Origin: a virus
Lineage: Duplodnaviria; Heunggongvirae; Uroviricota; Caudoviricetes
Strand: one strand, 5' to 3'
Length of the DNA stretch: 64,000 nt
Virus record (IMG/VR): IMGVR_UViG_3300009093_000042
Location: 1 to 64,000 of that record
The notes under the pieces: model-generated
Databases searched by the model: none
What the model saw: the letters and a program-made list of their open reading frames with translations, nothing else
What the model was told of the DNA's origin: nothing
In this document: in pieces, positions 8,982-62,568 of the stretch
Numbering within the stretch: the first letter of the stretch is position 1
Layout of the letters: every line of letters starts with the position of its first letter
Position numbers and translations under genes: made by a program

Positions 8982-10187
8982 TTATTTGAGGACGGGTGCC
9001 GGAGTGGTTGCCGGAGTAACCGCAGGCGTGGTCTTGACGCCGACCATCATCTGTTCGACGGAGTCCATGAAGCTGGACGTGAGCAGGTTCACTTTCATGT
9101 CCTGCGGCAGCCAGCCCTTCACGCCCGAGAACGCGGGTGCGACCTGCTTGGCGATCTCGATGCGGGCGAACACGTCGGCACCGGCCACGGCGTAGGATTC
9201 GAGCTTCAGCTTGTTGGCTTGGGCTTCGGCTTCACCACGGGCGAGAATACCCTTGGATTCGGCGATGTCGGCATCACGTTTGCCTTCGGCTTCCAGCACG
9301 CGTTTCTGCTGCTCGGCTTTGGCGGCGATGATTGCCTTTTCGTTGTCGGCTTCCGCTTTCAAGATGGTGACCTGCTTGTCCCGGTCAGCCCCCACGATCT
9401 GGGTGTTGGCGTCGGCCTGGGCTTTGGCTTTGGCCACCAGCGCTTCTGCTTCAGCGGCCTTCTGCTCCTCCACGGCGCGCAACTGGCGCTGCACCGCGAC
9501 CTGTTTGCCTTTGATTTCCTCGATGTATTTCGGGTCCAGGGCAATGTGCTCGACCACGAAATTTTCCACGATGATGCCGCGCTGAGGCAGCTCCGCGCTG
9601 GCCTGGTCCTGGCCTTTGCCTTGCAGCGCGTTCTGGATGTTCTGCTGGAGCGTCACGAGGCCGGAGCCGGAGTAGGCGTCAAGAGCTTTCATCTTGGTGG
9701 CTTCGTCTTTGACGACGCGCATCACGACCGGGCGAATCAGCTTTTCCTCAATGTCCGTGCGGACGGTTTTGTGGATGCTGACCAGGTTGGTCGGATTCAG
9801 CCGCCAGCGGATGTTCATCGAGATCGTCATGTCTTGGCCCTCCTGGGACTGCACCAGGTAGGCGTCAGTGGCGCGGCCTTCGCCCTTTTCTTCAGGCGTG
9901 GTGTTGTTATTCATCACGAAGATGCGCGAGGAGGCGTCGTACGTGATGATCTTCTGGCTCCAGGCAGGGATCAGAACTTGCAGGCCGGGCTGATAGACTT
10001 TGTCTTCGACGCCGTCGTGCCAGGTTTCCTTGATGCCGAGTTCATTGCCTTTGATCATCTTGTAGTTCACGCACTGCAAAAGCAGGAACATTACGATGAT
10101 GACGGCGATAGCGCCGCCGATTAGTTTTCGTGGATTCATATTGGATTCTTCTGTTTTTGGTTTGGTGGTCCTTCGTCGTGCTGTCAT
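8982..10187 (-). CDS. SPFH/band-7 (stomatin/prohibitin/HflK-like) membrane protein
   Basis: N-terminal TM anchor, then a band-7-like core (IRPVVMRVVKDEATK...GIIVENFVVEHIALDP) and an Ala/Glu/Lys-rich coiled-coil tail. ATGA coupling to the upstream small membrane gene. Confidence 0.65.
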   Translation of the reverse strand: MTARRRTTKPKTEESNMNPRKLIGGAIAVIIVMFLLLQCVNYKMIKGNELGIKETWHDGVEDKVYQPGLQVLIPAWSQKIITYDASSRIFVMNNNTTPEEKGEGRATDAYLVQSQEGQDMTISMNIRWRLNPTNLVSIHKTVRTDIEEKLIRPVVMRVVKDEATKMKALDAYSGSGLVTLQQNIQNALQGKGQDQASAELPQRGIIVENFVVEHIALDPKYIEEIKGKQVAVQRQLRAVEEQKAAEAEALVAKAKAQADANTQIVGADRDKQVTILKAEADNEKAIIAAKAEQQKRVLEAEGKRDADIAESKGILARGEAEAQANKLKLESYAVAGADVFARIEIAKQVAPAFSGVKGWLPQDMKVNLLTSSFMDSVEQMMVGVKTTPAVTPATTPAPVLK

Positions 10188-25824: not shown

Positions 25825-26517
25825 CTACGCGAACTGCACGACGGCGATGTCGCTGATCTTGAAAACCGGATTCGTATGGTTCCAGTTGATGTTCAGGTGA
25901 TCGAGCACGCCATAGGTGCTTTCTCGCATAATTCCCCAGTCATTTAATGGGGTAAAGCTGTGGCCTGCCAACGAGGCTATTTCATTCACCACTTGGGCGT
26001 CAAAAGTGGCCTTATCAACATCAGTGCAGGCGGTGTCGGTATTTCTGAAAAGCTGGATGTGCCAGTCAGGATTGCCTTTGATGATGTCCACGAAGAACAG
26101 TGTGCGGTTAGCATCTGTTGCTCCGATGTTCCACGTGCTCGGCTCCAAATCTCCGCCGCCGCCCGTTCCGGCCAGTAGAACACCGTTCCCCCATTCTTCA
26201 GCCGCTCCAAAGGAACAGCCGTAGCGTGTCGGCCCGGTGGCCCGAACGAACGTGTTGAAATTGCCCACCATGTTTGCTCCAAAAAAGTGCGTCGGAGCTA
26301 AGCCGGAATCACCAAAGATGCTGGTATCTCCGGTGCAGATGCCTACGTGAAGACTGCACGAACTTACATCTGCGCCCGAGTCAGCCATGCACAAGCGCAT
26401 TCCGATCCGCAGCTTTTGCCACGTGCTGTTGAGCATGAAAAACGGCTGGCGAGCGAACCGACTGGCATCAAGAATGAGCCGATTCTCGCCGCTAATGCTG
26501 GAAATGATGGCGGACAT
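25825..26517 (-). CDS. virion-associated protein, tandem paralog A
   Basis: About 60% identical to 26521..27207 (MSAIISS.GENRLILD.SRFARQPFFM ... KISD.AVVQ.A). Confidence 0.55.
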   Translation of the reverse strand: MSAIISSISGENRLILDASRFARQPFFMLNSTWQKLRIGMRLCMADSGADVSSCSLHVGICTGDTSIFGDSGLAPTHFFGANMVGNFNTFVRATGPTRYGCSFGAAEEWGNGVLLAGTGGGGDLEPSTWNIGATDANRTLFFVDIIKGNPDWHIQLFRNTDTACTDVDKATFDAQVVNEIASLAGHSFTPLNDWGIMRESTYGVLDHLNINWNHTNPVFKISDIAVVQFA

Positions 26518-26520
26518 GAC

Positions 26521-27207
26521 TTAGGCGAGTTGAACCACCGCGAGATCGCTGATCTTGAAAACCGGAACGCCAAAGTTCCAACTGACGTTGATGTGGTCCA
26601 TGATTCCATTGGCAGCTTCGTTCACCAGCAGGTTTCCTGGCGTCTGAAAGCCGTGACCCGCGATAACGGGATTACCACTGACCACCTGGGCGTCAAAAGT
26701 AGCTTTGCTAACATCGACGCAGTTGTTGTCAGTGTTTCTGAAATAGCTCAGCGTCCACTGCGTGGGTCCCTTCTGGATGTCCACGAACAGCACCGTTCGA
26801 TTATTATCAGTCGCACCGATGCACCAGGTCGAAGGCTCCATATCGACGCCGACGCTGGAAACGTTCACGCCGTTGACAAAGCAGCTTCCTGATGAGAAGG
26901 AGCACCCGTACTGAGTGACGGGACTTGTCGCTCGGATAAACGTTGCGAAGTTCCCGACCCAGTTCATGCCCACAGCGTGGTGCGGGGCGGCTCCAGGATC
27001 ACCCCAGATGCTCGTATCGCCATTGCACGCTAGAACATTGAAACTGGCCGGGTTTATATTTCCTCCTGAGTCAGACATGCAAAGCCGCATCCCGATGCGC
27101 AATTTCTGCCACGCTTGGCCGACCATGAAAAAGGGTTGCCGAGCAAAACGACTGCTATCGAGGATGAGCCGATTTTCTCCGCCGACACTTGAGATAATTG
27201 CTGACAT
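26521..27207 (-). CDS. virion-associated protein, tandem paralog B
   Basis: Paralog of 25825..26517. Confidence 0.55.
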   Translation of the reverse strand: MSAIISSVGGENRLILDSSRFARQPFFMVGQAWQKLRIGMRLCMSDSGGNINPASFNVLACNGDTSIWGDPGAAPHHAVGMNWVGNFATFIRATSPVTQYGCSFSSGSCFVNGVNVSSVGVDMEPSTWCIGATDNNRTVLFVDIQKGPTQWTLSYFRNTDNNCVDVSKATFDAQVVSGNPVIAGHGFQTPGNLLVNEAANGIMDHINVSWNFGVPVFKISDLAVVQLA

Positions 27208-46688: not shown

Positions 46689-49600
46689 TCAGTGATATAC
46701 CAAAAATGGATTCGTGACGAAATCGCGCTGGAGGAAGTAAATGTCCCCGCTCGAATAGTCGATGGCGATGGAGCTGATATTCGCTCCCGTCGTGAACTCA
46801 CACACAATGGTTTTTCCGACCGGGTCGATCACCGTGACTTCGCCATTCTGGGCCGCTGCAATGATCAGTCCCGACACCGGGTTGTACTTGACATAAACTT
46901 TGTTGAAGACGTTGGAGACGTTCGTGAACGTGTCCACCACAGCGTAGGTGTTGGGATCGAACGAAACAATCGGGTTCGTTGATCCGTCCACCAGGCAGAA
47001 GTAAACCAGCCCTGTCGCCGGGACATAATCCACTTCAAAGTTCGAGTTGACCAGGAAGCTGTTGTTGTTGAGGGTCAGCGCAGGGAGCGCATAAAACAAC
47101 GTGGAGTTGGTCGGCTTCAGGATCAACTGACCAGGCAATCCGAATACGCCGGGCGTTGTTGCAGCAGAAATGGTCGTGGCAACGTCGTTGGTGATCGTGT
47201 TAGTGTGCGGGTCGATCTCGATGATGTGGATTTTGTGATCGCTGTTATTTCCCGCCACGCCGTATATCTTGTCCTGCGCCGCGCTGTAGTAGTAATTCGT
47301 GAGGAAGAACGAGTTGACTGGTTGACCGATCTCAGTGACCACGTTTCCACTGGTGTCGAATACCAACACACCTGCGGACCCGGTGACGAAGAACGTTTGG
47401 GTCGTCGGTGCAAAGGCGCTTCCATCACCGTCCATGTCCCATTCCACGTCGCACGCTGTTTGGGCGAGGACAGTGTTGGTCGATGAGTCGATGAACGTCA
47501 TGATTCCATCATTGGACCGCGTGACGCCGATGATTCTCACTGCGGCATTACGGCTCATCAGGATTTCGCCGTCAACGTTTCCAGTATTATCGAATTGTGT
47601 CACGAACACCGGACACGTCGGCGTGGGCGGAGCGGGCGAGGAGGAGCATGGACTCATAATGGTTCCGTAGGTTACGAAAGCAGGCAGCGTTCCGTCAGAC
47701 ACGGTGAACGATCCATTGAGGATAATGTCTTCGGTCCGATAGGACGTGGTTGCGGTTAGTTTGTTTGAAAACGGCTGAGGATTGCTCAGCGTGTCGTTGG
47801 AGCTGTAAATCTGTGACTCGTGCTGATAGCCGTAGGCCGTTCCCCAACTGCTCATGGTCGCCATCCAGCCGCCCGGAGTGGTTGGATAATCGGTGCCGGA
47901 GGTACCGAACTTCGTGGTCACGACGGAGCCTGCGCCGACTGTCAAACGATACAGTGACGTGTGGAATCGAGTGAGATTCACTTCGCTGATGAACAACTGG
48001 CGCGCCGTTCCCTTCTGGTTGTCACGGATGGCATTGCTCCAGTCAAACAGCAACAGCCAGGAACTCGGGCTGCCGGGCAGTGTGTGCGGCAGATAGAAAT
48101 CGAACGTGTCGGTCTGGCTGAAGTTCGCGCCGGTCTGGTCTGCACAGAGCTTGCCCTGGAAGACGATGTCGCCAACCGTGATGACCACGTTGAACCCAAC
48201 GAAGCTCGTATCGACTTTGCCGATGTTGCCAGACGTGACGCTCAATCGGTAAAAGCCGGGGAGCATCTGGTTGTTGATCTCGAACGCGATTTGGCCGTTG
48301 TTCTTCAGCGCCACCACTGGAGGCGTCTGGGCCAGGCCGAACGTGTTGGGCTGCACCCACGCGTTCACCGTGTTCGTCCCGGACAGGTCAATCACCGTTT
48401 CCTCATTTGCGTAAAGATAGATCGGCGCTGAGGTCGCGGTGCCGGTGTAGGTGCCTGAGTAAACCACGCCGCTGGTATTGACCGAGAGCTGTTTGTGCAG
48501 CGTTGCATCGCTTAGTTCCACTTCCGCGCCAGTCGGCTGGTACGACCCGTTCAAGCTGAAAATCTTTTCCGTGACGAAGGACACGTTTCCGGCCTCGGTG
48601 TTGGCCAAACTGATCTGCCAGACAAAGCCGTCGTCCCCCTTTCTCCAGATGCGATCTCGGCAGGGGTTGGTGGCTTGCAGGGGATTGGGCCACGGAGAGC
48701 CAGTGCCGGTCGAGGCGAGGGTGCCTGCGATGCCAGAGATGGTGCTGCCACTTTCGATCAGCGTCAGCACAAAGCCTGACGGATTGTCAAAGAGCCAGAC
48801 CTTGTTGACGCCAGGATAGTTTCCCTGCCAGGTGGACACTGCCACCGTCCCGTCCGCCGTGAGGGTGTCCCAGACACTTCCCAGAACTTGTTTTGGAGGC
48901 AGCGTGTTGCCGCCGCCTACGCCGGTTTCTTTGTAGCGTGATTGCGCGTCGTAGCGCGCCAGGTAATCGTAGCGCTGAACCCACGCGAGATTGTCCGTAA
49001 TGATCGAAGTGGGCAGTTGGTCAGGGATCACGTAACCGCTCGGCAGCACTTTGACTGCGTAGTGATCGTACGTGTTGACCGATTGCAACCACGTGGGCCG
49101 GTAAAGGCAGGCGGTTGGGCTTGGATTGTGATAGCGCGCCAGCGTCAATTCGTCCTGGGCTTTCGTCACATTCCACAGGCGCAGGTCCTGGATGTCAAAA
49201 GGCGAATTCTGGCAGCTCACTGTCAGATGGTACGGCGTTTCAAAGTCGATCAAGCTGGTCACTGAGATCGTTTGCACCGTGAGGCTGCCGGTCGAGTTCC
49301 AGTAATAAACCGTGAGCGTTTGAACGCCGTCGAATGACCACGCGAAGTAGCTCCATTTCTGGTCGAACACCTGGAACGCTTTGAGATTCACCGTCCCATC
49401 AGAGTAGGTCAGATAGAAATTCAAACGAGGCGTCGTGATTGCTCCCGAGAGTGTGATCTTCAGCGGGCCGGACAAAAGGATGGTCTGTTCGCTGGTGTAG
49501 CTGTTCAAGCCGCGAATCCAGAAACCACCGGAGAACATTTGGCCGAAGCCACGGGCCACCGGGCTGTTCAATAGCAATCCCGGTTGAGCTGCGAGATAAT

Positions 49601-51989
49601 TGCCGCGAACCGGATCAAACTTACGGTCGCCCGAAGCCAGCCCGTCGATGAAAGCGTTTCCAGCGTAGATCGAGTGATCTTCCACCAGAATGGCGTCGAG
49701 CGGCTGCTCATTGAAAGGATACCAGAGCGCCAGACCGTTGCGGTGATGTTTTCCAAAGAACTTCGGAGCGTCCGCCACCAGAACGCCTTGAACCAATCCG
49801 AAATGGTAAAGCTGCCAGCCCGGCTGCATCACACCGTCGAGACCGCCCTGTAATGTGCCGCTGGACGGACGAGTACCGGCGAGATTCAAAAATGTGCCGC
49901 TGAAGGCGATAGCGCGTTGGCCGGGAACGTAATCGTCCAGACTGCGCTCGGCAGTGACAAAGCGAGGAGGATAAGGTCCAGGTACCACGACCTGCACGTC
50001 GTACTGCGCGCCGGTCTGACTGACGACCGAAGCCGTCTGACCCAACCGAATGGTTTCCAGGTCCGGCACTGCCGGGCTGTAGTCGTTCAGGTCAACCAGC
50101 TCGCCGCCGCCCACCAGGCTGCGTCGCCATGGATACTCGTCCGGCATATCCATGGCTGGATCATCCAGAAAATCTTCCGGGCGCTCCTGATAACCGATCT
50201 GGATGCAGTTGGTTCCCGGATTCGAGCGAACGACTTCGGTCGAAGTCGGTTCGAAGACGACGTTGACGATGGTGCCTGTCTGAACCGTGCCGGGGAATCG
50301 AAGTATCCAGCTCGCGTTGCGATAGTCGAATGTGCCGGAAGCCAGCAGGTCGCTGGTCTTCAGCGTCAGGAAGCCGGAGTTCGTGATCGACTGTTCCTGA
50401 TACATGTCAATCGTCCCGGTCTGGAATTGGACGCTGTACGGAGGCGTCGGAAAGTCCGTGATCGTACCGCTGTAAATCGAAGTGCCGCTGTGGGTGATGA
50501 ACAGTTGATCCTTCTCGCAGAAGGCAGCGTAGCCGACCTGGTCTTCGATGAGATAGCCGACGTTGACTTGGCGCGGCGTACGGGTCGCGGGCCGGACTTC
50601 TTCCATCGCGGCCACCACTTGCGCGCCTGCCGCGCTGAGCGCGTCCTGGTCAAATTGACGGCTGGTCAGGTCGGCCTGCACGCGGGGAGAAACAATCGTC
50701 AGGTTGCCGTTCGTGTTGGTGCGCGTGATCCAATCGGCGGTGATCAGTTCCTGTCTGATGGACCCGGACATCCACGGACGAAACGGAGAAACGGCGGTTG
50801 CGCCGAAGTTCGCCGAGGTCGGGTTGTTCACCAGGTCCTTGTTGGCCGTGGCCACGACCGTTCCGAACTGCTCCAGCGCGTGGTCGAAATCCATCGTCAA
50901 CCCGAGATCGAAATAGCTGGTGCGGTATTTGATTGCCGAGAGCCGGTCGGTGATGGAGATGATGCGCGACGTGCCATTGTCGATGGACGTGAAGTTGATT
51001 TCCAGGCCGTTGAAGCTCGACCCAGACGAGATTGCCTTGAACAGCAGCCCGCTGCCGGGCGGTTCAACTGACGCCTGCTTTTCCGGGCCGCCGCCCACCA
51101 GGATGTAAGGCGCGCCTGCCGGATCGGGATCGGTTGGTGCCGTTCCCACCACGCTGACACTGACAAACGGATTGAACCCGTTCACAATATCGGTGTAAAA
51201 ACGCGTGTCGCTTTGTCCAAAGCGCGCTGAGGCAGTGCCGGTCCAAGTGAAAAAGGGACCGTCGTTCAGTACCCACGGATCGTAAAAGTTGTCGCGGGCC
51301 TGCTTCGGGAAATAGTCAGGAATCGTGGCGAAGTCCTGGTTGTTTCGCGGATCACCGATGTCGTTGGCGATACGCGGGCTGAGTCGCCCCCAAAGCGGAC
51401 TCATTCGCACGTCGTCAAAACCCAGAAGCCTGCCGAGCGTTTCGAAGGATTGCGCCGTGCCTTTGAACTGCAAACGCGGGAACCAGGTCGCCAGGAGACG
51501 GCGCGCATCACTCTGCGCGTTGTCCGGGTCCATCGCGGCTGTCTGGTAAAGCACCGCGCCAACGGTTTCAGCCAAGTAACCCAGGATGTTGGCGTCAACC
51601 AGCCGGAGCATGTCCACTCCGTACGCTGCCGAGATCAGGACGTGGTTTTCGTCAAGCTGGAGCTGGTCGGCAGCCCAGGTGAGAAGTGCTGGATCGTTCG
51701 CAGCCGGAGTATCGCTCTGGAAATCCAGCGAGCGGTTGTAAACTTTTCCCTGCGGCGACTGCACCTGGCAGAGGACCACGTTGTTGACGGGAGTACCGGA
51801 ATTGTCAGTCTCCGGCAGTCCGTTTGCCGTGACCAGAAGTTCGAGCTTGGAGACGTACGATCGCGTGTCGTCGATGCGATCCTGATAGCCGCCAATGACC
51901 GCCTGAATCAACCCTTGTTCATCAAGGTCGATTATGCCTTCGGGCAGAAGGTCATACAGGTAATCCTCAATTAGATTCTGCAAGCTCAC
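46689..51989 (-). CDS. giant virion protein (1766 aa); internal-core or baseplate-fibre candidate
   Basis: Uninterrupted 5.3-kb ORF. Its position before the fibre genes resembles T7 gp16-gp17 order. Confidence 0.65.
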   Translation of the reverse strand: MSLQNLIEDYLYDLLPEGIIDLDEQGLIQAVIGGYQDRIDDTRSYVSKLELLVTANGLPETDNSGTPVNNVVLCQVQSPQGKVYNRSLDFQSDTPAANDPALLTWAADQLQLDENHVLISAAYGVDMLRLVDANILGYLAETVGAVLYQTAAMDPDNAQSDARRLLATWFPRLQFKGTAQSFETLGRLLGFDDVRMSPLWGRLSPRIANDIGDPRNNQDFATIPDYFPKQARDNFYDPWVLNDGPFFTWTGTASARFGQSDTRFYTDIVNGFNPFVSVSVVGTAPTDPDPAGAPYILVGGGPEKQASVEPPGSGLLFKAISSGSSFNGLEINFTSIDNGTSRIISITDRLSAIKYRTSYFDLGLTMDFDHALEQFGTVVATANKDLVNNPTSANFGATAVSPFRPWMSGSIRQELITADWITRTNTNGNLTIVSPRVQADLTSRQFDQDALSAAGAQVVAAMEEVRPATRTPRQVNVGYLIEDQVGYAAFCEKDQLFITHSGTSIYSGTITDFPTPPYSVQFQTGTIDMYQEQSITNSGFLTLKTSDLLASGTFDYRNASWILRFPGTVQTGTIVNVVFEPTSTEVVRSNPGTNCIQIGYQERPEDFLDDPAMDMPDEYPWRRSLVGGGELVDLNDYSPAVPDLETIRLGQTASVVSQTGAQYDVQVVVPGPYPPRFVTAERSLDDYVPGQRAIAFSGTFLNLAGTRPSSGTLQGGLDGVMQPGWQLYHFGLVQGVLVADAPKFFGKHHRNGLALWYPFNEQPLDAILVEDHSIYAGNAFIDGLASGDRKFDPVRGNYLAAQPGLLLNSPVARGFGQMFSGGFWIRGLNSYTSEQTILLSGPLKITLSGAITTPRLNFYLTYSDGTVNLKAFQVFDQKWSYFAWSFDGVQTLTVYYWNSTGSLTVQTISVTSLIDFETPYHLTVSCQNSPFDIQDLRLWNVTKAQDELTLARYHNPSPTACLYRPTWLQSVNTYDHYAVKVLPSGYVIPDQLPTSIITDNLAWVQRYDYLARYDAQSRYKETGVGGGNTLPPKQVLGSVWDTLTADGTVAVSTWQGNYPGVNKVWLFDNPSGFVLTLIESGSTISGIAGTLASTGTGSPWPNPLQATNPCRDRIWRKGDDGFVWQISLANTEAGNVSFVTEKIFSLNGSYQPTGAEVELSDATLHKQLSVNTSGVVYSGTYTGTATSAPIYLYANEETVIDLSGTNTVNAWVQPNTFGLAQTPPVVALKNNGQIAFEINNQMLPGFYRLSVTSGNIGKVDTSFVGFNVVITVGDIVFQGKLCADQTGANFSQTDTFDFYLPHTLPGSPSSWLLLFDWSNAIRDNQKGTARQLFISEVNLTRFHTSLYRLTVGAGSVVTTKFGTSGTDYPTTPGGWMATMSSWGTAYGYQHESQIYSSNDTLSNPQPFSNKLTATTSYRTEDIILNGSFTVSDGTLPAFVTYGTIMSPCSSSPAPPTPTCPVFVTQFDNTGNVDGEILMSRNAAVRIIGVTRSNDGIMTFIDSSTNTVLAQTACDVEWDMDGDGSAFAPTTQTFFVTGSAGVLVFDTSGNVVTEIGQPVNSFFLTNYYYSAAQDKIYGVAGNNSDHKIHIIEIDPHTNTITNDVATTISAATTPGVFGLPGQLILKPTNSTLFYALPALTLNNNSFLVNSNFEVDYVPATGLVYFCLVDGSTNPIVSFDPNTYAVVDTFTNVSNVFNKVYVKYNPVSGLIIAAAQNGEVTVIDPVGKTIVCEFTTGANISSIAIDYSSGDIYFLQRDFVTNPFLVYH

Positions 51990-52009: not shown

Positions 52010-54598
52010 TTAACTGACATAGATTTTTCGACCTTTGGCGATGAACCAGGTCGAACCGGCGTTTCCGTAGGTGGTGGAGTAAAGCCGATAGAGCTTTCCG
52101 TTAAAAGCAATTCTGTAACCGGTGTTGAGTTTTGCCCCGTAACCGGTGGCCGTTTGCTGAAGTCCCCGTTTCTGCCATGGTGTCGGATCGTGAATCAATT
52201 CCTTTCGGTCCGCATAAATCCGTGGAAATTGACCGTTGGGAGAAGTTTCCACGTCCGCATCAGTAAAAAGCTTGTAACCATTTCCGTCGCTCGCAACGTC
52301 TTTGGCATCGTCAGCTTCCGCCTCCTCGTCGAACCCTTCCTGCACTTGAGCCAGCTTTCCGTGATACAGGCTGCCTTTGGGCAACGCGGTGGCTTCGTCA
52401 CTGTAGGCTTCTTCATCGAGCAACGGTTGAAGTCCCGAAAACCAGAATTCCACAATGTGGCCATCCGGCAGCACCGCATTGAACAAATCCTCGTCAGCCC
52501 GCCCCCACCACTTGCTGTTCTCGGCCAGGACGTGCATCGCGGCAGCAACGTTGTGACCGTCGCCCAGGGGCGTTAGGAGGATGTCGAGGTCTTTTTCTGA
52601 TTCACCGTGCCGATCCACACTTCCGACGATTTCTGCTTCATAGCCTACCGCTTCCAGCGCCGGGCGAACCATTTGAAGCCACGTTTCCGCCTGCTGGCGC
52701 GTCCACGGTGTAGCTTCATGCGTTCCCGGAGCTTTATTAGCCGTGTAGTCAGAAAGAGAGGACTCTCCAACAGATTTTGAAGCGTTCATCATGTACTGAT
52801 AAGCGTACTTCAAAAATTGCTTTTGGTTTTCCGGGGTTAAGCTATTCCAGAAAACTGGACGACTCGACGGTGACTGTAAAATTTTCATCGCTCCGTCAAA
52901 GCCGTGTTTTTCTATTTTTCTTGCAATAAAACCCTTGGCAAAAGCCATCACTTCATGAGGATCGTTGAAATAGCCTTTTTCGCGAAAATCCGGCTTCTGC
53001 TTTTGTTTATGATAGCTGGCCACCATCTTAGGAATGCTGCCCGGTCTCATGCGGCCCATCTGGCCTCGGTGTACAAGTTCATGCTGGATCATCCGCCGCA
53101 GATAGGATAGGAGGGTATCATCATTGCCTCGGGCCATCCATTGCGGCATACGGATGAGGATTCGGTTATGCACGAAGCCAAAAGCGGCGGCGGGAGAGCT
53201 GGACGGGAGAAAGCTTAATTCTTCCGTTTTCACTTTTTTCAGCGCACTCAGCCAGTTAATTTTTCCTTCGCTGTTATCAACTTCCTGCTGAGCTTTTTTA
53301 ATCTGCTGGAGAGCGAGCTGAGAAAGCCTTTCCACTTCTTCCTCTTTGGGTTCCACAACGTCTTCTGTGATCTGTTCCATCTCGATGTTTGGCTTACCGA
53401 GAAACAGTTTCGTTTTGGCTTTAGTTAGGCTGCTGAAGATCACAGACTTCACCAGGAATCGGGCATTGGTGTGCTCATCTGGTGCCATGAGGCGTTTGCC
53501 AACCAACTCGCGGCAGGTGCCCTTGGTCACGTAGGCCACGGTCATGTGCGGGTGGTATTCCGGGTACGTGTCCGTGCATTCCAGTTCCGCACTGATGCGA
53601 GCATTCAATTTGAAAAGCCCTTCGCCGGAGATGTCGAATTTCACCACATCGAACTTCTCATTTTCAAACAGCGAGATTGCTCCCACTTCGATCTCGAACG
53701 GCTCGGTTTGTTCGATGATCTTCAGAAGTTCCGGGCTTGGGTCTTTTTCGTGGAGTCCGAATTTAACCGTCACGTGGACTTCGTCCTCGCGCCCAAAACC
53801 CTCCGGGTCCTCCGGGTCGGTGTAGAGCTTATCGTCGGTGATGAACATCCGGCTGAACTGCTGCACTGCGTCCACGATGTCTGGCGACGCCGGGGCCATG
53901 ACACAGGAAAACTTCCGGGCCTCCATGATGCTCTCGATCTGCGCGTCCACGCCGCCCTGGTCGGGGTAAAGCCATTCGCTCAGCATCTCAGGAGTAATCC
54001 TTTCGACAATGCCGGAGGTATCGACCGCCTGATCAGCGCCAGTATCTTCAAACCATTCCGCGCCGCTCATATCGCGGGCGTCTTCAAACAGACCGCGCAA
54101 GCGCTCGTCTTCAATGAACTCCTCGTCGAGATCGGGAAACTTTTGCTTCAGGTTGACGAGGAATTCCTGGCGGTAGTGGTGCTTCCAGGCTTCGTCGCGT
54201 TTCAGCGATTCCACTGTGCGGTATTCTTCTTCGTCCAGCAGGCCGGAGGTTTTCAGCTTCTTGATCTGTTCGAACAGGCTGGCCGCCATGTCCGAATCCA
54301 ACTGGCCGAGTGACGATTCCGGTATGCCGACGATGACTGCGTTGAAGTTGGGGCCGGTGCTTGGGACGATGACGGGATAGTTCTTGATGAGGTAGCGGGC
54401 GTTGGCGCGGTCGGCGGTGTTGCCGGTATAGTCACTGAACTCGACGAGCTTCCAGACTTTGTGCTCGGGATCGTAAATCAGATTCTCATCCAGGAAGGCG
54501 CGCACTTTTTCCGGGTCCACGTCCCGAAGTTCACGCATGAAATCCGCGCTTTCTTGGTCGTCGCTTTCAATCAGTCGCCGCTTGGTAAGGTTTTTCAT
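52010..54598 (-). CDS. multidomain protein with 2H phosphoesterase (LigT-like) signature, HExxH motif and Pol-beta-type nucleotidyltransferase motif
   Basis: EVHVTVKFGLH and HPHMTVAYV form a pair of H-x-T-x motifs. MIQHELVHRGQ is the HExxH motif. IVGSVDRHGESEKDLDILL is a G[SG]..DhDh NTase motif. Confidence 0.6.
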   Translation of the reverse strand: MKNLTKRRLIESDDQESADFMRELRDVDPEKVRAFLDENLIYDPEHKVWKLVEFSDYTGNTADRANARYLIKNYPVIVPSTGPNFNAVIVGIPESSLGQLDSDMAASLFEQIKKLKTSGLLDEEEYRTVESLKRDEAWKHHYRQEFLVNLKQKFPDLDEEFIEDERLRGLFEDARDMSGAEWFEDTGADQAVDTSGIVERITPEMLSEWLYPDQGGVDAQIESIMEARKFSCVMAPASPDIVDAVQQFSRMFITDDKLYTDPEDPEGFGREDEVHVTVKFGLHEKDPSPELLKIIEQTEPFEIEVGAISLFENEKFDVVKFDISGEGLFKLNARISAELECTDTYPEYHPHMTVAYVTKGTCRELVGKRLMAPDEHTNARFLVKSVIFSSLTKAKTKLFLGKPNIEMEQITEDVVEPKEEEVERLSQLALQQIKKAQQEVDNSEGKINWLSALKKVKTEELSFLPSSSPAAAFGFVHNRILIRMPQWMARGNDDTLLSYLRRMIQHELVHRGQMGRMRPGSIPKMVASYHKQKQKPDFREKGYFNDPHEVMAFAKGFIARKIEKHGFDGAMKILQSPSSRPVFWNSLTPENQKQFLKYAYQYMMNASKSVGESSLSDYTANKAPGTHEATPWTRQQAETWLQMVRPALEAVGYEAEIVGSVDRHGESEKDLDILLTPLGDGHNVAAAMHVLAENSKWWGRADEDLFNAVLPDGHIVEFWFSGLQPLLDEEAYSDEATALPKGSLYHGKLAQVQEGFDEEAEADDAKDVASDGNGYKLFTDADVETSPNGQFPRIYADRKELIHDPTPWQKRGLQQTATGYGAKLNTGYRIAFNGKLYRLYSTTYGNAGSTWFIAKGRKIYVS

Positions 54599-55975: not shown

Positions 55976-56695
55976 TCATACGTCTATGTCGTTGAGCACC
56001 TTAACGTCCGTGCATTGCCTCATATCCTGCTGAAGCACGGACTCAGGAAAGTAGGTCTCAGCGGTCACATCCAGGAGCCGATCCAAGGTGGATTTTGGTA
56101 AGCTCCAGACGGGAATCCGGCCACCTTTCCGACCGCATAAAATGATCTCTTTGGTGTCGATTAGGTGCTTGAACCCGCGCTCGACCGTCCACCGCGTCAG
56201 GTAATAGTGGCGTTCGGCCCATTTGCCCGGCGTGATGTAGTGGGTTGCTTTCTTGTTGGCATCCTCCAGGGATTCCTGCTTCTTCCAGTTTTCGATGATC
56301 CAGTGTGCCAGGTTGTGGTGGATGATTGCGGGGACTATGCCGTGAATCATGGTGAATTCGACCTCGAAGCAGAAGCGCGCCCCGTGGCTCACATCGTCCG
56401 GCAGGTTGAAGTCGGGGTTGTACTTGCCGATCATCCGGTAGGTGTAGTGCAACATCCCTCGTTGCTGCGACCGGGTAATGATGGGCAGTTCCTCGCCGTG
56501 GCCGCGCAAGAGCCGGTTGAGCGCGGAGCGCAGGCGCTGTTTGCCCATGTAGGGATAGCGCTTCAGGAGTTCGTCAAGGGTAATGGTCGTACTGCCGAAA
56601 TTTTCGTCGCGCCAGCTCAGGTAAGCGTACACGAGTGCGGCGTCGAGGCCATACAGCTTGGCCATCGCGGGTGAAAAGCGGTGAATTGTACTCAC
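55976..56695 (-). CDS. putative replication initiator or DNA-binding protein (winged-helix-like N-terminus)
   Basis: N-terminal LVYAYLSWRDENFGSTTITLDELLKRYPYMGKQRLRSALNRL resembles initiator winged-helix domains. The 21-bp iterons begin at its stop codon. A helicase gene is next upstream. Confidence 0.45.
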   Translation of the reverse strand: MSTIHRFSPAMAKLYGLDAALVYAYLSWRDENFGSTTITLDELLKRYPYMGKQRLRSALNRLLRGHGEELPIITRSQQRGMLHYTYRMIGKYNPDFNLPDDVSHGARFCFEVEFTMIHGIVPAIIHHNLAHWIIENWKKQESLEDANKKATHYITPGKWAERHYYLTRWTVERGFKHLIDTKEIILCGRKGGRIPVWSLPKSTLDRLLDVTAETYFPESVLQQDMRQCTDVKVLNDIDV

Positions 56696-56730: not shown

Positions 56731-58542
56731 TCAGCCCAACTTTTCGTAAACTTTTGCTTGCGAAATACTGTCCGGTCCGAGCAGTGGATGGACGAAGGTG
56801 TAACCCCGGATGTTGAATAGTTTGTCGAAGACCCGTTTGCATCCGCGCCGGAGAATTTCGTGCTGGTTGTCGAAGAACCAGGTGATCTCCGCTTCATTGT
56901 TTACTTTTTTCTTACGAATGAAGCGACCGATAATCTGGTTGGCGCGCTCCCAGTCGCCAACGTAGTCAGCGATCACGCCGCCTCGAATTTCATTGATGGA
57001 AACGCCTTCCTGCACGAGTGGCGAGATCAGCACGCCGCCCGGTGTCTGCCGGAACCAATCGAAGCATTGGTCGCGCTGGCGTGGGCTGTGTTCACCGAGC
57101 AGTACCCGGACGTTGTGTTTGCCCACGGCGGCTTCAATCAGGCCCTGCAAGATGTAGATGTGGAGCGTGCGCGTGCAGACCACCAGCGTCGGATATTTCT
57201 TTTCGACGCTGTAGTAGCGCGTCCAATCCGTGATCATGTCATTGCGCTCGCCGAAGCGAATGAGCGCCCGGTCGTTGACTCGTTCCAGCAGGCAGTAAGT
57301 GGACTCGATTTCGTAAACAGATTCGTCACCGGGAAATTGGAACGTGTGAAAGCCGTCAATCGTCACCGGCACTTCCACGTCTTTCCAGCGCGCCGATTTC
57401 ACGGTCTCGGTGGCACCGTCTTCAGTCACCCTCTCACCTTCGTCCACGGTGTCTTCCAACACGCGTTTTTTCTGCGTCTTGATGTCGCCGTTTTTATCCA
57501 GCTCGTAAACCGGTCCAATGTAGGTTCCCTTTTTCCATTCGTTGCCGACGAGGGCGTAGCCGGGTGTGCCGGGAATGGCCTGGTGCGGCAGCGTCGAGAA
57601 GCGATTCCTCCAGGCCGGATTCTCGACAATGTAAATCTTGGGTTTGGCCGACCTGCCGATGTCGATGTAAACGCCGACCGGGACCGTGTAGCGGATCGGA
57701 CCGAGCAGCCCCTGGATGCGCGCCATGCTGTCAGGATCGTTGTCGCGCCGGGTGTCCGAGGCTCCCAGGCGAAAGAAGCACGGCAGCTTCATTAGGACCG
57801 CAGAGCTGGTCTTGGAGCAGGCGTGATGAGATTCGTCGTAGAGCACGCCGATAAACGAGCTGAACCAGTCTGTGCTCGCCAGTTTCGCGAAATGCTTCCA
57901 CAGCATCGCGGCGGTCGAGATGACCATGTCCTTTCCGGTGTTGTCCCCTTTACTTCCGCCGTACTGCGTGATGTCCCAGTCGGGCAGGAACTTCGTGATT
58001 TCCTGGTAAGCCTGGCGCACCAGGCGCTCTCGGTCGGCGATGTAGAGAAAGCGCGCTTCGTTGCCGTACCGGCGTTTGATCATGGCGGCAGCCGCTGCGA
58101 ACATGGCGGTTTTGCCACCGTTCACGGCGATTTTATTCACGCCCATGCCGCTGCGCAGCCAGAAGGCGATGGACTCGCGCTGATACTCATCGAGCGGGAA
58201 GTCAGCCTGGATGAGGTCATCAGGCAGGTCATCAGCGACGAGGCTGGCAAAAGGAGACTTAAGGCACTCTCTGGTATTGACCAGGAAGTTGAGGTTGCGC
58301 GCCGTCTGGATGACTTTGTCTTTGTGGCCGCGCAGGCAGTCGGCGCGCCCGATGTCGAGAATGCGGATCGGAGAAATGTAGCCGTCCCATCCTTCAGCTC
58401 CGTCCGTTAAGTCGTAAGCTTTGTAGCGAGGGGAATGGAAATAGCCCTTCGGATGATACCGAAGTTTGAAATGAATGGCCTTGATTTCGTTGTCTTCGCC
58501 GCTTAAGCGAAGGCGCGTTGGCCCCTCGACAATGTTTATCAT
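56731..58542 (-). CDS. SF2 DExH-box helicase
   Basis: Motif I AVNGGKTAMF, motif II VLYDESHH, motif III-like LGASDT. Promoter motif upstream. Confidence 0.6.
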   Translation of the reverse strand: MINIVEGPTRLRLSGEDNEIKAIHFKLRYHPKGYFHSPRYKAYDLTDGAEGWDGYISPIRILDIGRADCLRGHKDKVIQTARNLNFLVNTRECLKSPFASLVADDLPDDLIQADFPLDEYQRESIAFWLRSGMGVNKIAVNGGKTAMFAAAAAMIKRRYGNEARFLYIADRERLVRQAYQEITKFLPDWDITQYGGSKGDNTGKDMVISTAAMLWKHFAKLASTDWFSSFIGVLYDESHHACSKTSSAVLMKLPCFFRLGASDTRRDNDPDSMARIQGLLGPIRYTVPVGVYIDIGRSAKPKIYIVENPAWRNRFSTLPHQAIPGTPGYALVGNEWKKGTYIGPVYELDKNGDIKTQKKRVLEDTVDEGERVTEDGATETVKSARWKDVEVPVTIDGFHTFQFPGDESVYEIESTYCLLERVNDRALIRFGERNDMITDWTRYYSVEKKYPTLVVCTRTLHIYILQGLIEAAVGKHNVRVLLGEHSPRQRDQCFDWFRQTPGGVLISPLVQEGVSINEIRGGVIADYVGDWERANQIIGRFIRKKKVNNEAEITWFFDNQHEILRRGCKRVFDKLFNIRGYTFVHPLLGPDSISQAKVYEKLG

Positions 58543-58556: not shown

Positions 58557-58576
58557 AAAAAAGTAAACAAATTATT
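58557..58576 (-). promoter_or_regulatory. conserved promoter-like element upstream of helicase gene
   Basis: Minus strand TAA-TTTGTTTACTTTTTTGG, then a 20-nt leader to the ATG. Confidence 0.45.
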
Positions 58577-59900
58577 TTGCTGGAGGCTCAGGAGTGGGGA
58601 TAATCTTTCTGAGCTGTTCGATCACATCCGCTGGACCGACAGCGCCCAGACACTCGCAAATTTGGCGGTCTTTGCGCGGCGGGCAGTATCTCGGGAACGT
58701 ACCCGCGTAAGCGAAGCACGGTGAAAATTGGCAGACTTCCTTTTTCCACACCGGGAAGTGATTTTTGTAGTACTTCACGCGGTTCATGGGATTGCACGGA
58801 CCCCAGAGGCCGACGCAAGGCGTTTCCAGCGACCCGGCGATGTGGACCATCATCGAGTCTGGACCGATCACGACCGCTGCCCGGCTGGCCACGGCCCATA
58901 GCTCGCGCAGGCTGGCCGCCTGGTAAATCTGGATGTTGTGCCGGAGGGTGCCGGAGCCTTTGCACTTGGGACAAATTTCTTGCTTTTTCCTGCCTGCTGC
59001 GGCGATGGACTCAGTGGCTTTCGTCACTTCGGCCAGGGCCTTGTCCGCTGATACGTTCGCCATGTCGTGTACGATCGGCACGGGCGGCGGTTCGACCACG
59101 TTGGATTCAAGGCGGCCCTTGCCGTTGCATTTCTGGCATTCGACGGCCTTTCGGTACTGTTCGGGAACGAACTTGTCGTAGAGTGCCAGCCAGTGAACGT
59201 TCGGGTAGGCTTCCGCGACTTTGCTCAGCAGGTAGGCGCTTTCGTTGGGCGGCATACAGCGCACCGGGTTGGCCGCTGAGAGTTGGTACATGCCGATGGG
59301 TTTTCCCTGGAACTGCATGGCGGCCTGCATCTCCAGGAAGGTGAAGTTCGGGTGATAGACTTTTAGTTTCGGGTCCACTGCGTCCGGGTTGATGCCGACG
59401 CGCCGGAGCATTTGGTCGAGCGGATGGAGCTGATCCACATGTTCTTCGGCATTGACGACAGTCTCGAAAATCACCCAGTAATCGTACATCTTAAACTGCT
59501 CGTACTGGATGGGGATGTTTTGGATGGACTTAACGAAAGGCATGTTCCACCAGCAGCTCACGTTGCCGGGATCGACCAGCACGTGGACTTCAAAGCCGTA
59601 GGACGCGAGGATGCGCGCAAACGGCCAGGTCATCACCTGGTCGCCGTAGCCGCCGCTGCCGTTGTAGAGTAGCAGCTTCTGGGTGCCGGGCTTCTTCGCG
59701 TTTGCGTTGAAATTGGGAATGCGGTTCTCGATGCGGCTCCACTTAAAGAGCCGGTCTTTCACTTCTTCCTTCGCGATCATGCGGTTGAAGTGAGATGCGG
59801 CGATCACGTAATCACGCCCGGCTTCGAAGACCATGTTGGTCGCGCCTGCGGATTTTTCCATCGTCAGTGAAACGTGTTCTGCAAAAGTGACAAGATTCAT
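58572..59900 (-). CDS. GT9-family (heptosyltransferase-like) glycosyltransferase with zinc-ribbon insertions
   Basis: IGPDSMMVHIAGSLETPCVGLWGPCNP matches the GT9 C-terminal D..H.A....P.V.LFGP motif. CQKCNGKG and CPKCKGSG inserts. ORF-track start 59906 is TTG, trimmed to ATG at 59900. Confidence 0.55.
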   Translation of the reverse strand: MNLVTFAEHVSLTMEKSAGATNMVFEAGRDYVIAASHFNRMIAKEEVKDRLFKWSRIENRIPNFNANAKKPGTQKLLLYNGSGGYGDQVMTWPFARILASYGFEVHVLVDPGNVSCWWNMPFVKSIQNIPIQYEQFKMYDYWVIFETVVNAEEHVDQLHPLDQMLRRVGINPDAVDPKLKVYHPNFTFLEMQAAMQFQGKPIGMYQLSAANPVRCMPPNESAYLLSKVAEAYPNVHWLALYDKFVPEQYRKAVECQKCNGKGRLESNVVEPPPVPIVHDMANVSADKALAEVTKATESIAAAGRKKQEICPKCKGSGTLRHNIQIYQAASLRELWAVASRAAVVIGPDSMMVHIAGSLETPCVGLWGPCNPMNRVKYYKNHFPVWKKEVCQFSPCFAYAGTFPRYCPPRKDRQICECLGAVGPADVIEQLRKIIPTPEPPAK

Positions 59901-59977: not shown

Positions 59978-60388
59978 ATGAGAATCCAAAAGATCAAAGA
60001 CACTTTTAACGATTATCGCGTGGAGCTGAGTTGGGGACAACTCAACGCGGTTTTCAAGGCGCTGGAGCAAGACCACGCCGATCCTCTTGCCGATGAGCTT
60101 TTTGCCGAGCTTGGCTGGTACCTTGAAAATGTGCCCGGCCCCGGCGAGGATGAAGACGAATATAAGGAAGCCAAGGAGGCTGAAAAGCAGTCCATTGAGG
60201 CCGGGGAGGAGGGCGCGGGCGGTGGAGCACCGAATCCCGACCTGGTCGGTCAGGAAGTCGGGCCTCCGGGAGAGCCGGAAGGTGCTGAGTCGCCGGTACC
60301 GCAAATGCAGCCGGGAGTTGAAGACGAAGCTGACCAGCACCTGGAACGTCCTCCTGGCCGCGAGGAGCAGGAGCCTCTGCCGGTTTAA
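59978..60388 (+). CDS. acidic hypothetical protein (plus-strand island)
   Basis: Glu/Asp-rich. Shares a divergent promoter region with the GT9 gene. Confidence 0.45.
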   Translation: MRIQKIKDTFNDYRVELSWGQLNAVFKALEQDHADPLADELFAELGWYLENVPGPGEDEDEYKEAKEAEKQSIEAGEEGAGGGAPNPDLVGQEVGPPGEPEGAESPVPQMQPGVEDEADQHLERPPGREEQEPLPV

Positions 60389-60404: not shown

Positions 60405-60932
60405 ATGAGCGCCAACACACCACTGCTCACCGATGCCTCTCGACTGGCATCGACGCAGAACGTGCAGAATTACAGCACGGGCGTTGCCGCGCACATCAAT
60501 GGTGACTGGGGACAGCACATTCAGATCGCTATCATCGACGAAAACTGGGTGGATTCTGCCGGGAACATTATCCCGAAAAGCAAACGTCTCCGGTTTCTGG
60601 CCAGCGTGGACGGCCAGGATGTGGCCTTGGTGATTCCGATCATTCCGTTCACTTCTGGTTCCCTTGGAAACGGACCTCAGATCACAAGCCAGCCGGTAAG
60701 CCAGTCGGTCAAAAAGGGAGGGTCGGTTACATTCTCGGTCACGGTCACCGGCGACCCAGTGCTGTCGTATCAGTGGCGACACAACAAGGTTGTCATTCCC
60801 GGTGCGATCTCGGCTCAGTTTGCCATCACCAACGTCCAGCAGATCAGTGGTGGAACATACGACTGTGTGGTGAGCAATCCTTTCGGTGTGGTGACGACGA
60901 ACGAGGTCAACTTGACCGTAACCTTGAAGTGA
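60405..60932 (+). CDS. Ig-like domain protein
   Basis: C-terminal PQITSQPVSQSVKKGGSVTFSVTV...YQWRHN...GTYDCVVSN is an I-set/Ig-like signature. Confidence 0.5.
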   Translation: MSANTPLLTDASRLASTQNVQNYSTGVAAHINGDWGQHIQIAIIDENWVDSAGNIIPKSKRLRFLASVDGQDVALVIPIIPFTSGSLGNGPQITSQPVSQSVKKGGSVTFSVTVTGDPVLSYQWRHNKVVIPGAISAQFAITNVQQISGGTYDCVVSNPFGVVTTNEVNLTVTLK

Positions 60933-60933
60933 T

Positions 60934-62568
60934 ATGGCGTCGAAAACCCTCGTAACCCAGGATGAGCTGAAGCAGACGATTGCCGGGCTGAACGCGCTGG
61001 CGGACAACCTGAACGAGCACGTCAATCAGTCGCTCTCTAAGGGACACGGGTGGAGCATCATAGACACCCCTTACCTGGATTCTGGCGGCATCTACCACAC
61101 GGATTTTGGCCAGTCTGGAGCGACGAGTATTCCTGGGATCGCCAATACCGGCGTGAATAACGACGGTACCTTGGCTTCGCCTGGAAGCATCGACCAGCAC
61201 TGGACCCTCATCCTCAGCCCTGATCCATCTTTCCCAGGTCCGAACGCTTTCGTCTCCAGCCCGAAAAAGGCTAATTGGTCGAGCAACGGTCCCATTTCAC
61301 AGTGGATTTCTCCAGCGGCGGACGCGACCAAAAACCGTAAAGGCGGCAGCTACAAGTACCGTCTTTCCTTCAATCTCTCTGGACTCAACCCGGCGTCGGC
61401 TGTCGTGAAGGGCAGTTGGGTCTCTGATAATAACACGACAGCGGTTTTGCTGAACGGCGTGACCACTGGGCTGACCGGACCAGCGAACTTCGGCAGCCAG
61501 CCCTCAGCCGGTTCGCAGTTTTATTTCAACAGTGGTTTCACCACTGGCGTCAACACGCTTGATTTCATTGTCAATAACGGTTCTGGCAGCCCTACCGGTA
61601 TCCGTGTGGAGATCACCGGCACTGCCTCAGCGGGTGGTGTCTTTGCGGTGCCGACCGTTTACGGAACAGGCTTGAATGACAATCGGACTCTCGCTACGCA
61701 AGGCGTGGCGGACCCGCACTGGACTCTCATTCTGAGCGCGTCCGGTTTGAATCCCGGCCCGACAGCGTACGTTCTTAAGGCTCCTCTTGATGGTTCGTGG
61801 CAGGGTAACACTTCGGCGTCACAGTGGATTGGCGTGCTGCCGAACGGCACCCAGTCTCCAGGTCTTGGTGCCTACGCATTTCGCACCACTTTTGATCTTA
61901 CTGGGTTCACTCCGAATACCGTTATTTTGAAGGGTCAGTTCAATGTGGACGATTCAGTGACGCAGGTCCTTTTGAATGGCATCGCGGTCGCCAGCTTTCC
62001 GAAGGGAAACAAGAAAACTATCAGCAGTTTTCTGATTAGTAGTGGCTTCGTTTCCGGTGTCAACACGCTCGATATTCATACCAAAAACACAGCCACTCAC
62101 ACGGGTCTTCGTGTGGATATGAGTGCGACCGGTTCCAAGAGTGGAAGCGGTCTCACCAGTCGGGTTCTGCGCTTGAACATCGGCGGGAACGTCTTCTATT
62201 TTCCGTGCCAGGCGTCAGGCGGGCTGGATGGAACGCCCGATCCGGCGATCCCAAGCTTCACCGGTATCATCTCACCACAGTCGGCTGATCCGGCGACCGA
62301 TCTCACCGTTGGTAGCCCCACGCCAGGGCAGTTGATAACGACTTTTTCTGACCAGTTGAATGCCATCTCCGGCGCGGCCAGTGACACGCTGGTTCAGCAC
62401 GCAGGTAGCGCGGCGGAGCACGTGCATGGCGGTTTGAGCTTCCAGCAGGACTCGGTTGTCACGTCGGCGGGTTACCTTGTCGGACGGCGCACCGTGAACA
62501 TTCTCATCGACGGTGTTCAGTACAAGATCGTTGGGGACTTCAATCCCAACGGCCCGATCAACTCTTAA
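60934..62568 (+). CDS. repeat-domain surface protein (three ~190-aa modules with D.HWTLILS motif)
   Basis: IDQHWTLILSPDPSFPGPNAFV and ADPHWTLILSASGLNPGPTAYV modules. Each module ends with NTLD(F/I) and a following hydrophobic stretch. Confidence 0.55.
   Translation: MASKTLVTQDELKQTIAGLNALADNLNEHVNQSLSKGHGWSIIDTPYLDSGGIYHTDFGQSGATSIPGIANTGVNNDGTLASPGSIDQHWTLILSPDPSFPGPNAFVSSPKKANWSSNGPISQWISPAADATKNRKGGSYKYRLSFNLSGLNPASAVVKGSWVSDNNTTAVLLNGVTTGLTGPANFGSQPSAGSQFYFNSGFTTGVNTLDFIVNNGSGSPTGIRVEITGTASAGGVFAVPTVYGTGLNDNRTLATQGVADPHWTLILSASGLNPGPTAYVLKAPLDGSWQGNTSASQWIGVLPNGTQSPGLGAYAFRTTFDLTGFTPNTVILKGQFNVDDSVTQVLLNGIAVASFPKGNKKTISSFLISSGFVSGVNTLDIHTKNTATHTGLRVDMSATGSKSGSGLTSRVLRLNIGGNVFYFPCQASGGLDGTPDPAIPSFTGIISPQSADPATDLTVGSPTPGQLITTFSDQLNAISGAASDTLVQHAGSAAEHVHGGLSFQQDSVVTSAGYLVGRRTVNILIDGVQYKIVGDFNPNGPINS

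Follow-up and report, generated by a model that had tools for sequence, protein, structure and literature searches.

To our knowledge, enzymes of glycosyltransferase family 9 (GT9) are known almost only as the heptosyltransferases of the lipopolysaccharide (LPS) inner core and as the O-heptosyltransferases that act on autotransporters in a few pathogens. TibC, an enzyme of the second kind, is composed of an N-terminal β-barrel, a four-stranded N-lobe, a thumb and a Cys4 iron finger, with the thumb and finger mediating oligomerisation and contact with the substrate (PMC4358343). We refer to TibC, AAH and their homologues as BAHT. A stretch of 64,000 nucleotides from a Caudoviricetes genome (positions 1 to 64,000 of the IMG/VR record IMGVR_UViG_3300009093_000042), which was analysed as a whole and is called the window here, contains a gene for a GT9 protein. 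Judged from its sequence, this protein is a mosaic that combines an active site like that of the LPS enzymes WaaC, WaaF and WaaQ with accessory modules like those of BAHT, and it lies outside BAHT. It may be an active, phage-specific enzyme that glycosylates a protein.

The open reading frame (ORF) is on the minus strand with its stop at 58572 and candidate start codons at 59906 (TTG) and 59900 (ATG). Because all homologues begin with MNL(V/I)TF or MNL.., we assigned the ATG at 59900 as the true start, which gives a predicted product 442 amino acids long. The gene and its parts are listed below.

58572..59900, minus strand: complete coding sequence of a phage GT9-family glycosyltransferase, 442 amino acids plus the stop codon
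59685..59900, minus strand: N-terminal β-rich domain, amino acids 1-72, recognised from the secondary structure of the model, its conservation in all full-length homologues and its charge
59307..59684, minus strand: reduced N-lobe and inter-lobe linker, amino acids 73-198, with four strands at 74-79, 103-109, 123-128 and 141-144
59637-59663 of the window, minus strand: GSGGYGD motif with the putative catalytic base D87, from alignment to WaaC D13 and TibC D110
58953..59141, minus strand: facultative insertion, amino acids 254-316, with two CxxCxGxG half-sites around a variable linker, from motif positions, a census of homologues and profile matches
58797..58862, minus strand: nucleotide-sugar binding motif PDSMMVHIAGSLETPCVGLWGP, amino acids 347-368, from phmmer alignments to WaaF, WaaC and 3tov and an hhalign alignment to WaaC
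58650..58733, minus strand: constitutive Cys4 finger formed by C390, C395, C406 and C415, a putative metal site from its invariance and the alignment with TibC

The gene product is a family-9 (heptosyltransferase-type) glycosyltransferase. Residues 325-390 matched the Pfam model PF01075 (Glyco_transf_9) with E=7e-9 and 35.8 bits against a cut-off of 22, and the same model was matched by 37 of 38 homologues. A preliminary description of the gene, made from the DNA letters and their translations, had recognised a GT9 C-terminal motif. The residues quoted there (348-371) lie inside the PF01075 match and align with the DSG..H..A...P.V.L.GP of WaaF and WaaC, and the donor motif aligned residue by residue with the E. 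coli forms of both enzymes and, with phmmer, also with 3tov. The AlphaFold2 model of the protein (predicted local distance difference test (pLDDT) score 88.5, predicted template modelling score 0.84) has the two-lobed GT-B fold and its greatest likeness is to solved GT9 structures. Fold comparison values were 22.3 for 3tov (Veillonella GT9), 21.1 for 1psw (WaaF), 19.6 for 4rap (TibC) and 18.2 for both 2h1f (WaaC) and 7wff (chloroplast PnsB1). The claim of a GT9-fold enzyme is borne out by the sequence (PF01075) and by the predicted structure. A profile search of PDB sequences returned GT9 matches that were only marginal (E 0.04-0.14); a P-loop-like match to ArsA in this search was spurious.

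The best Foldseek matches among viral structures (BFVD) were also GT9-fold proteins, with E values from 1e-10 to 5e-7. These come from uncultured phages and giant viruses and include A0A6J7WHE7 ('RfaF') and A0A6J5SVC1 ('Aah/TibC'). Although they share a viral GT9 fold with our protein, the query TM-scores were low, at 0.45-0.50, with an identity of 11-17%, and their architectures differ in being either minimal enzymes of 250-320 amino acids or fusions of more than 900. None of them has been functionally characterised.

Across an alignment of 40 relatives with identities as low as 22%, G86, D87, D162, R214 and H353 were invariant and P347, D348 and S349 were at least 90% conserved. Alignment with WaaC using hhalign paired D87 with the catalytic base D13, R214 with K192, D348 with D261 and H353 with H266; D87 was also aligned with TibC D110. 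The protein therefore contains the GT9 catalytic signature of an Asp in an N-terminal G-D loop, a Lys or Arg in the C-lobe and D-[ST]-x-x-x-H ... G-P. We do not expect a pseudoenzyme because the catalytic and donor residues are invariant over deep divergence, and we rejected that possibility on these grounds.

The catalytic core had its best sequence match in WaaC, WaaF and WaaQ (PDB 2h1f and 1psw; TIGR02193, TIGR02195 and TIGR02201), with which it shares the conserved catalytic Asp, the Lys/Arg and the D-[ST]-x-x-x-H ... GP motif, and the alignments place it closer to these enzymes than to TibC. Unlike them, the phage enzyme has about 72 additional N-terminal residues, a 63-amino acid zinc-finger insertion and a Cys4 finger, and its N-lobe is about 40 residues shorter and is acidic where those of the Waa enzymes are basic. 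The preliminary description overlooked the N-terminal β-rich domain and the second, constitutive Cys4 finger. In the AlphaFold2 model, amino acids 1-72 form five strands (2-6, 10-16, 19-25, 30-33 and 51-56) and two short helices. This domain is absent from WaaC, WaaF and WaaQ, was conserved in all full-length homologues and is basic, with a mean net charge of +4.5 across the family. The N-lobe that follows has only four strands and, with the linker, comprises about 126 amino acids according to the model. Net charge is a crude proxy; for the N-lobe it has a mean of -5.6 (range -8 to -3) across 38 homologues, compared with +7 in WaaC, +5 in WaaF, +2 in WaaQ and 0 in TibC. At the other end of the protein, C390, C395, C406 and C415 were invariant in 38 of 38 homologues, at least 90% conserved in distant relatives and present in 114 of 116 full-length homologues. 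These cysteines are missing from WaaC, WaaF and WaaQ of E. coli.

To compare the protein with the autotransporter enzymes, we used the TibC sequence of E. coli H10407 and an alignment of BAHT sequences for profile-profile comparison with hhalign, which aligned 328 columns with a probability of 70.6 and E=3.9e-5. The four cysteines at 390, 395, 406 and 415 were paired one-to-one with C339, C342, C358 and C370 of TibC, and the zinc-finger insertion fell within TibC residues 259-277, which form the β-hairpin thumb. The phage protein and TibC/AAH (PDB 4rap and 4rb4; PF21129 plus PF01075) thus share an additional N-terminal β-rich domain ahead of the catalytic domain, an N-lobe cut down to four strands, a C-lobe insertion at the thumb position, and a Cys4 finger downstream of the GP motif whose cysteines align. 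They differ in that the phage enzyme has the canonical D-S-x-x-x-H where TibC has P300 and W305. The insertion, although it sits at the thumb-aligned site, is an optional zinc-finger excursion that is missing from 41 of 116 members, whereas that of TibC is a plain hairpin. TibC and AAH are also encoded by bacterial pathogens and not by phages, and no autotransporter gene adjoins the phage GT9 gene. The Pfam model of the TibC N-domain, PF21129, was carried by all 120 BAHT homologues among the matches listed and had no match in our protein or its 38 homologues. Membership of BAHT was rejected because of this and because the sequence similarity is weaker than that to the Waa enzymes. From conservation and alignment, the Cys4 finger of the phage protein is probably a metal site equivalent to the iron finger of TibC.

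The preliminary description had reported two zinc-ribbon insertions that canonical enzymes lack. The cysteine motifs are real and are absent from these enzymes, but they do not represent two separate ribbons and instead appear to be paired half-sites of one insertion. CQKCNGKG (amino acids 255-262; window 59115-59138) and CPKCKGSG (amino acids 310-317; window 58950-58973) both have the DnaJ-type pattern CxxCxGxG, and hhalign showed the whole 254-317 segment to be an insertion relative to E. coli WaaC, WaaF and WaaQ, none of which contains the motifs. When CxxC motifs between the lobes were counted in 116 full-length homologues, 72 had two, 41 had none and one (P0110) had four in the full DnaJ arrangement; a single degenerate motif was found in one homologue and the last sequence had a pair together with an unrelated CxxC elsewhere. 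The pair is not a chance occurrence, given its presence in 72 of the 116 full-length sequences from a set of at least 221 homologues. The occurrence of the motifs in pairs (0, 2 or 4 copies) makes it most likely that both half-sites contribute to one zinc centre of the DnaJ type, located at the base of a variable excursion.

The insertion ranges from 8 to 74 amino acids across the family with a variable segment between the motifs, and homologues without the motifs have a short helical linker in its place; P0045 is one of those that lack the insertion. Mapping the module onto a rough tree of the catalytic core (crude UPGMA, the unweighted pair group method with arithmetic mean, with parsimony) gave about six gains or losses. 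Thus, the module is optional and evolutionarily unstable. It cannot be needed for catalysis if about a third of the family does without it, and so it is predicted to be dispensable for this activity. Zinc binding by the insertion is likewise predicted from its motifs and their profile matches. The match of our protein to PF00684 (DnaJ_CXXCXGXG) was below the gathering threshold (23.1 versus 32.7 bits), as expected when a version with two repeats is scored against a model with four, and the match to Anti-TRAP (PF15777) was sub-threshold as well. Among the 38 members, 15 matched PF00684 at E<=0.01 (best E=7.2e-6) and 10 matched Anti-TRAP. The NCBIfam DnaJ model PRK10767 aligned amino acids 249-322 with its positions 138-209, the Cys-rich region of DnaJ, and a PHROGs scan of the GT9 protein gave nothing above threshold, with zinc-finger-like matches below it. 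The module resembles the DnaJ Cys-rich domain and Anti-TRAP in having CxxCxGxG repeats that pair to bind zinc, with all four repeats in P0110. It differs from DnaJ in that most GT9 members have two repeats, enough for one centre, around a non-homologous linker of variable length, and in that the module is embedded in a glycosyltransferase with no J-domain. The geometry proposed for the two metal sites comes from conservation and alignment only.

At least 221 sequences belong to the family; clustering at 50% identity gave 44 clusters with E<1e-30 and 965 with E<1e-3. A protein identical to ours is encoded on a 245,196-bp metagenome contig (ena:ERZ27252312:k141_4270398), in which the window corresponds to positions 143,284-207,283. 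An order of portal, gp25, further genes and Ig/fibre genes, followed by GT9 and helicase, was shared by 36 IMG/VR loci and by several metagenome contigs, with protein identities of 30-84%, and the same order occurred in contigs of 130-260 kb with GT9 proteins merely 45-48% identical to ours. Searches of 50,697 GenBank phage records with the protein (tblastn) and with 14 kb of DNA (megablast) found nothing, and 185,579 species genomes yielded a single weak match on a 4.6-kb contig of a Flavobacteriales metagenome-assembled genome. An uncultured, deeply novel group of myoviruses of about 200-260 kb with a T4-type portal has the GT9 gene as a fixed part of its core genome; we regard the gene as core and not as a sporadic conversion gene because its position and the gene order are fixed across the group. 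The same architecture of N-terminal domain, GT9 and Cys4 finger also occurs in other phages in the distant relatives P0171 (L010 7075-8328) and P0185 (L049 60-1922), the latter being a fusion with a GT2 domain and having another GT2 gene after it. Genes for GT2 proteins and FkbM-type methyltransferases adjoin other distant relatives, but the contexts of three such relatives come from contigs of only 2-5 kb and so carry little weight.

Upstream of the GT9 gene and divergent from it are genes for a 136-amino acid acidic protein, an Ig-domain protein (60405-60932), a 544-amino acid fibre-like protein and a CBM5/12-collagen protein, with gp25 and a T4-type portal farther upstream. Downstream in the same direction are genes for a ResIII/DEAD helicase and a replication-initiator-like protein, two small ORFs, and genes for an 862-amino acid protein and a 1766-amino acid protein. 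The T4-type portal, gp25 and a terminase-like gene nearby, together with homologues on IMG/VR viral contigs, agree with the earlier attribution of the gene to a phage. Its placement among replication genes holds in part: the gene heads an operon with the helicase and replication-initiator-like genes, but it sits at the border with the virion genes. The closest neighbours are as follows.

56731..58542, minus strand: helicase, 603 amino acids, with ResIII/DEAD and Helicase_C domains (Pfam; PHROG 16, DNA helicase, 4.4e-33)
55976..56695, minus strand: replication-initiator-like protein, 239 amino acids (PHROG 11233, 2.1e-11; the orthologue in L005 has a weak HTH_36 match)
59978..60388, plus strand: 136-amino acid acidic protein, directly upstream and divergent in 35 of 35 IMG/VR loci with a recovered GT9 ORF

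The helicase gene is 0-3 kb downstream of the GT9 gene in nearly all related loci. The most constant neighbour is the 136-amino acid protein, which is kept in L031 despite a moved helicase and portal. The C-terminal half of this protein is very acidic and probably disordered, and the protein may be a functional partner or a substrate of the GT9 enzyme. The 544-amino acid fibre-like protein (60934-62568, plus strand) is encoded beside the Ig-domain protein and has an internal duplication, ..DQHWTLILSPDPSFPGPNAFV.. and ..DPHWTLILSASGLNPGPTAYV..; both proteins are candidate surface-exposed targets of glycosylation.

The reading we favour is that of an active GT9 enzyme, specific to phages, with a protein as its acceptor. 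We give this a probability of roughly 0.4, which applies jointly to a protein acceptor and to a catalytically competent, inverting GT-B enzyme of CAZy family 9. By homology, the C-lobe would bind a nucleotide sugar, most likely ADP-heptose, through D348-S-x-x-x-H353 ... G-P and R214, and D87 in the GSGGYGD loop would act as the general base on the acceptor hydroxyl. Kdo2-lipid A would not be the acceptor; this role would fall to another macromolecule, most likely a protein of the phage virion or surface or of the host. We infer a protein acceptor because a Waa-like core is joined to an accessory layout otherwise seen only in TibC/AAH, and because the acceptor lobe is acidic; the adhesin-like virion genes that adjoin the GT9 gene were also counted for it. 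Glycosylation of a phage or host protein had been offered as an alternative in the preliminary description, and by analogy it is the better fit to the TibC-like accessory modules. The zinc centre may clamp the base of the variable-length excursion and, like the TibC thumb, would probably serve in oligomerisation or acceptor docking.

Several observations weigh against a protein acceptor. The match to a profile of E. coli WaaC, WaaF, WaaQ and WaaU (hhalign E=1.2e-10, probability 97) was stronger than that to BAHT (E=3.9e-5), and single-sequence hhalign gave 2e-7 for WaaQ, 9e-7 for WaaC and 1e-6 for WaaF compared with 4e-3 for TibC. Tandem-GT9 proteins without the N-terminal domain have similar Cys4 motifs too, so that the motif is not specific to BAHT, and pLDDT is only 63-77 over amino acids 390-420, where the clustering of the cysteines is a prediction from conservation. 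No autotransporter-like substrate gene is adjacent to the GT9 gene among its helicase, replication-initiator-like and Ig/fibre-like neighbours, and an operon with helicase and replication-initiator-like genes does not suggest virion glycosylation. The supply of ADP-heptose in Bacteroidota is uncertain, and a host from this phylum would make ADP-heptose less certain as the donor. Such a host may be indicated by the low frequency of Shine-Dalgarno-like motifs (a 4-mer upstream of only 9 of 68 long ORFs in the window), the absence of tRNA genes from the 64-kb window, the nearest cultured relatives of the portal (Flavobacterium and Microcystis phages, at about 23% identity) and the match in the Flavobacteriales metagenome-assembled genome.

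The preliminary description had proposed instead that the enzyme remodels the LPS core for serotype conversion or superinfection exclusion, a reading that our results disfavour. A heptosyltransferase that acts on the LPS core or a lipid-linked glycan, and so remodels the host envelope for superinfection exclusion, receptor masking or serotype change, seems to us rather unlikely, and LPS is somewhat less likely than a protein as the acceptor, with the build of the enzyme not by itself establishing the acceptor. The catalytic core most resembles WaaC/F/Q/U (E=1.2e-10) and retains the canonical donor motif and catalytic Asp, but the scores against NCBIfam equivalogs were far below their cut-offs (TIGR02195, 21.7 versus 134.6; TIGR02201, 21.5 versus 170.2; TIGR02193, 20.1 versus 185.3), as were those against the PRK models of LPS heptosyltransferases (15-21 bits versus 437-569), so that the scores as a whole lie at about 15-22 bits against cut-offs of 135-570. 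The full-size basic N-lobe of the LPS enzymes is also lacking, as judged from large gaps in the hhalign alignment with WaaC and the acidic charge, and the short acidic acceptor lobe contrasts with basic Waa N-lobes and would face the polyanionic Kdo2-lipid A. The N-terminal domain, Cys4 finger and zinc insertion have no Waa counterpart. JGI pipelines label homologues as 'ADP-heptose:LPS heptosyltransferase', and a heptosyltransferase I, assigned only by automatic annotation, is among the auxiliary genes in a survey of huge phages (PMC10747093); both would agree with an LPS acceptor. So would the distant relatives beside GT2 and FkbM-type methyltransferase genes, a setting that resembles glycan assembly. 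By contrast, the gene described here is a positionally fixed core gene and not a sporadic accessory, all of its loci have a phage virion/replication neighbourhood and not that of a cellular waa/rfa cluster, and close cellular homologues are essentially absent.

It is improbable that the enzyme glycosylates DNA by adding a sugar, such as heptose, to a hydroxymethylated or otherwise modified base as protection from restriction or CRISPR, with the zinc finger and the basic N-terminal domain contacting DNA. The second part of the C-lobe is basic like the N-terminal domain, but the acceptor lobe is acidic. The operon that begins with the GT9 gene is conserved and continues with genes for a DNA helicase and a replication-initiator-like protein, and there is a 4-bp overlap between the GT9 and helicase ORFs in L003; this adjacency may, however, be inherited gene order, given that T4 keeps uvsW beside its baseplate genes. 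P0171, 27% identical and of the same architecture, is encoded inside a replication module (SNF2/ResIII, PDDEXK, GT9, AAA_24, MCM, a faint Thy1, UDG and PolA), whereas other distant relatives occur in glycan-type contexts. Phage GT-B enzymes that add heptose to 5-hydroxymethylcytosine are known (bioRxiv 10.1101/2023.12.21.572611), and they lend this possibility some support, but the known DNA glycosyltransferases are T4 beta-GT-like and were not close structural matches here. Pfam searches of 61 of the 68 window ORFs, covering 64 kb of a 245-kb genome, found no thymidylate-synthase-like hydroxymethylase, TET/5mYOX or C5-methyltransferase that could modify bases, and no genes for sugar-nucleotide synthesis. 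Least probable is a non-catalytic protein with a GT9 fold, either a structural or scaffolding subunit like PnsB1 of the chloroplast NDH or a DnaJ-like co-chaperone module. A zinc finger of the DnaJ type is typical of chaperone-client binding, but here it is missing from a third of the family, and the catalytic base and donor-binding residues are invariant.

Other genes were also noted. The 862-amino acid protein (52013-54598, minus strand) has a 2H phosphoesterase / 2'-5' RNA ligase domain (PF13563, 2.3e-9). Its orthologues are 1212-2383 amino acids long (L003 14293-17931 and L005 15601-21227), one has a weak match to the anti-CBASS phosphodiesterase Acb1, and this may be a giant protein into which a nuclease domain with an anti-defence role has been fused. 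The 1766-amino acid ORF (46689-51989, minus strand) had no Pfam or PHROG match, and its counterpart in L003 (1857 amino acids) matches a PhoD-like phosphatase. Two adjoining paralogues on the minus strand (25828-26517 and 26524-27207; 230 and 228 amino acids) have near-identical N-termini, MSAIISS.GENRLILD.SRFARQPFFM, and represent a tandem duplication beside a 992-amino acid protein with a weak CBM5/12 match. The Acb2/Tad1 hairpin domain, whose fold is found in phage sponges that target cyclic-nucleotide immune signals, was matched by one of 41 small ORFs between 311 and 43013 (PF24729, E=9e-4). The window also encodes an SPFH/Band 7 protein of 401 amino acids with an N-terminal membrane anchor (8985-10187, minus strand; PF01145, 1.8e-19), an unusual phage cargo. 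A Logan contig overlapping the window at its left end contains a gene for an acyl-carrier-protein-like protein of 84 amino acids (PP-binding, PF00550; L053 6522-6776).

These results define a sizeable, phage-borne GT9 subfamily with a mosaic architecture in a phage group that has no close cultured relative. The automatic labels 'ADP-heptose:LPS heptosyltransferase' and 'auxiliary metabolic gene' are probably misleading for this GT9 family in huge phages. If the acceptor were DNA, the enzyme would be the first GT9-type DNA glycosyltransferase and a third GT-B lineage in phage DNA hypermodification. A TibC-like O-heptosylation system that decorates the virion proteins of giant phages would be less radical yet new. 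With a protein of the phage or the host as acceptor, the enzyme would exemplify protein heptosylation encoded by a phage, and the 'iron finger' of TibC would be an older and more widespread feature of GT9 enzymes.

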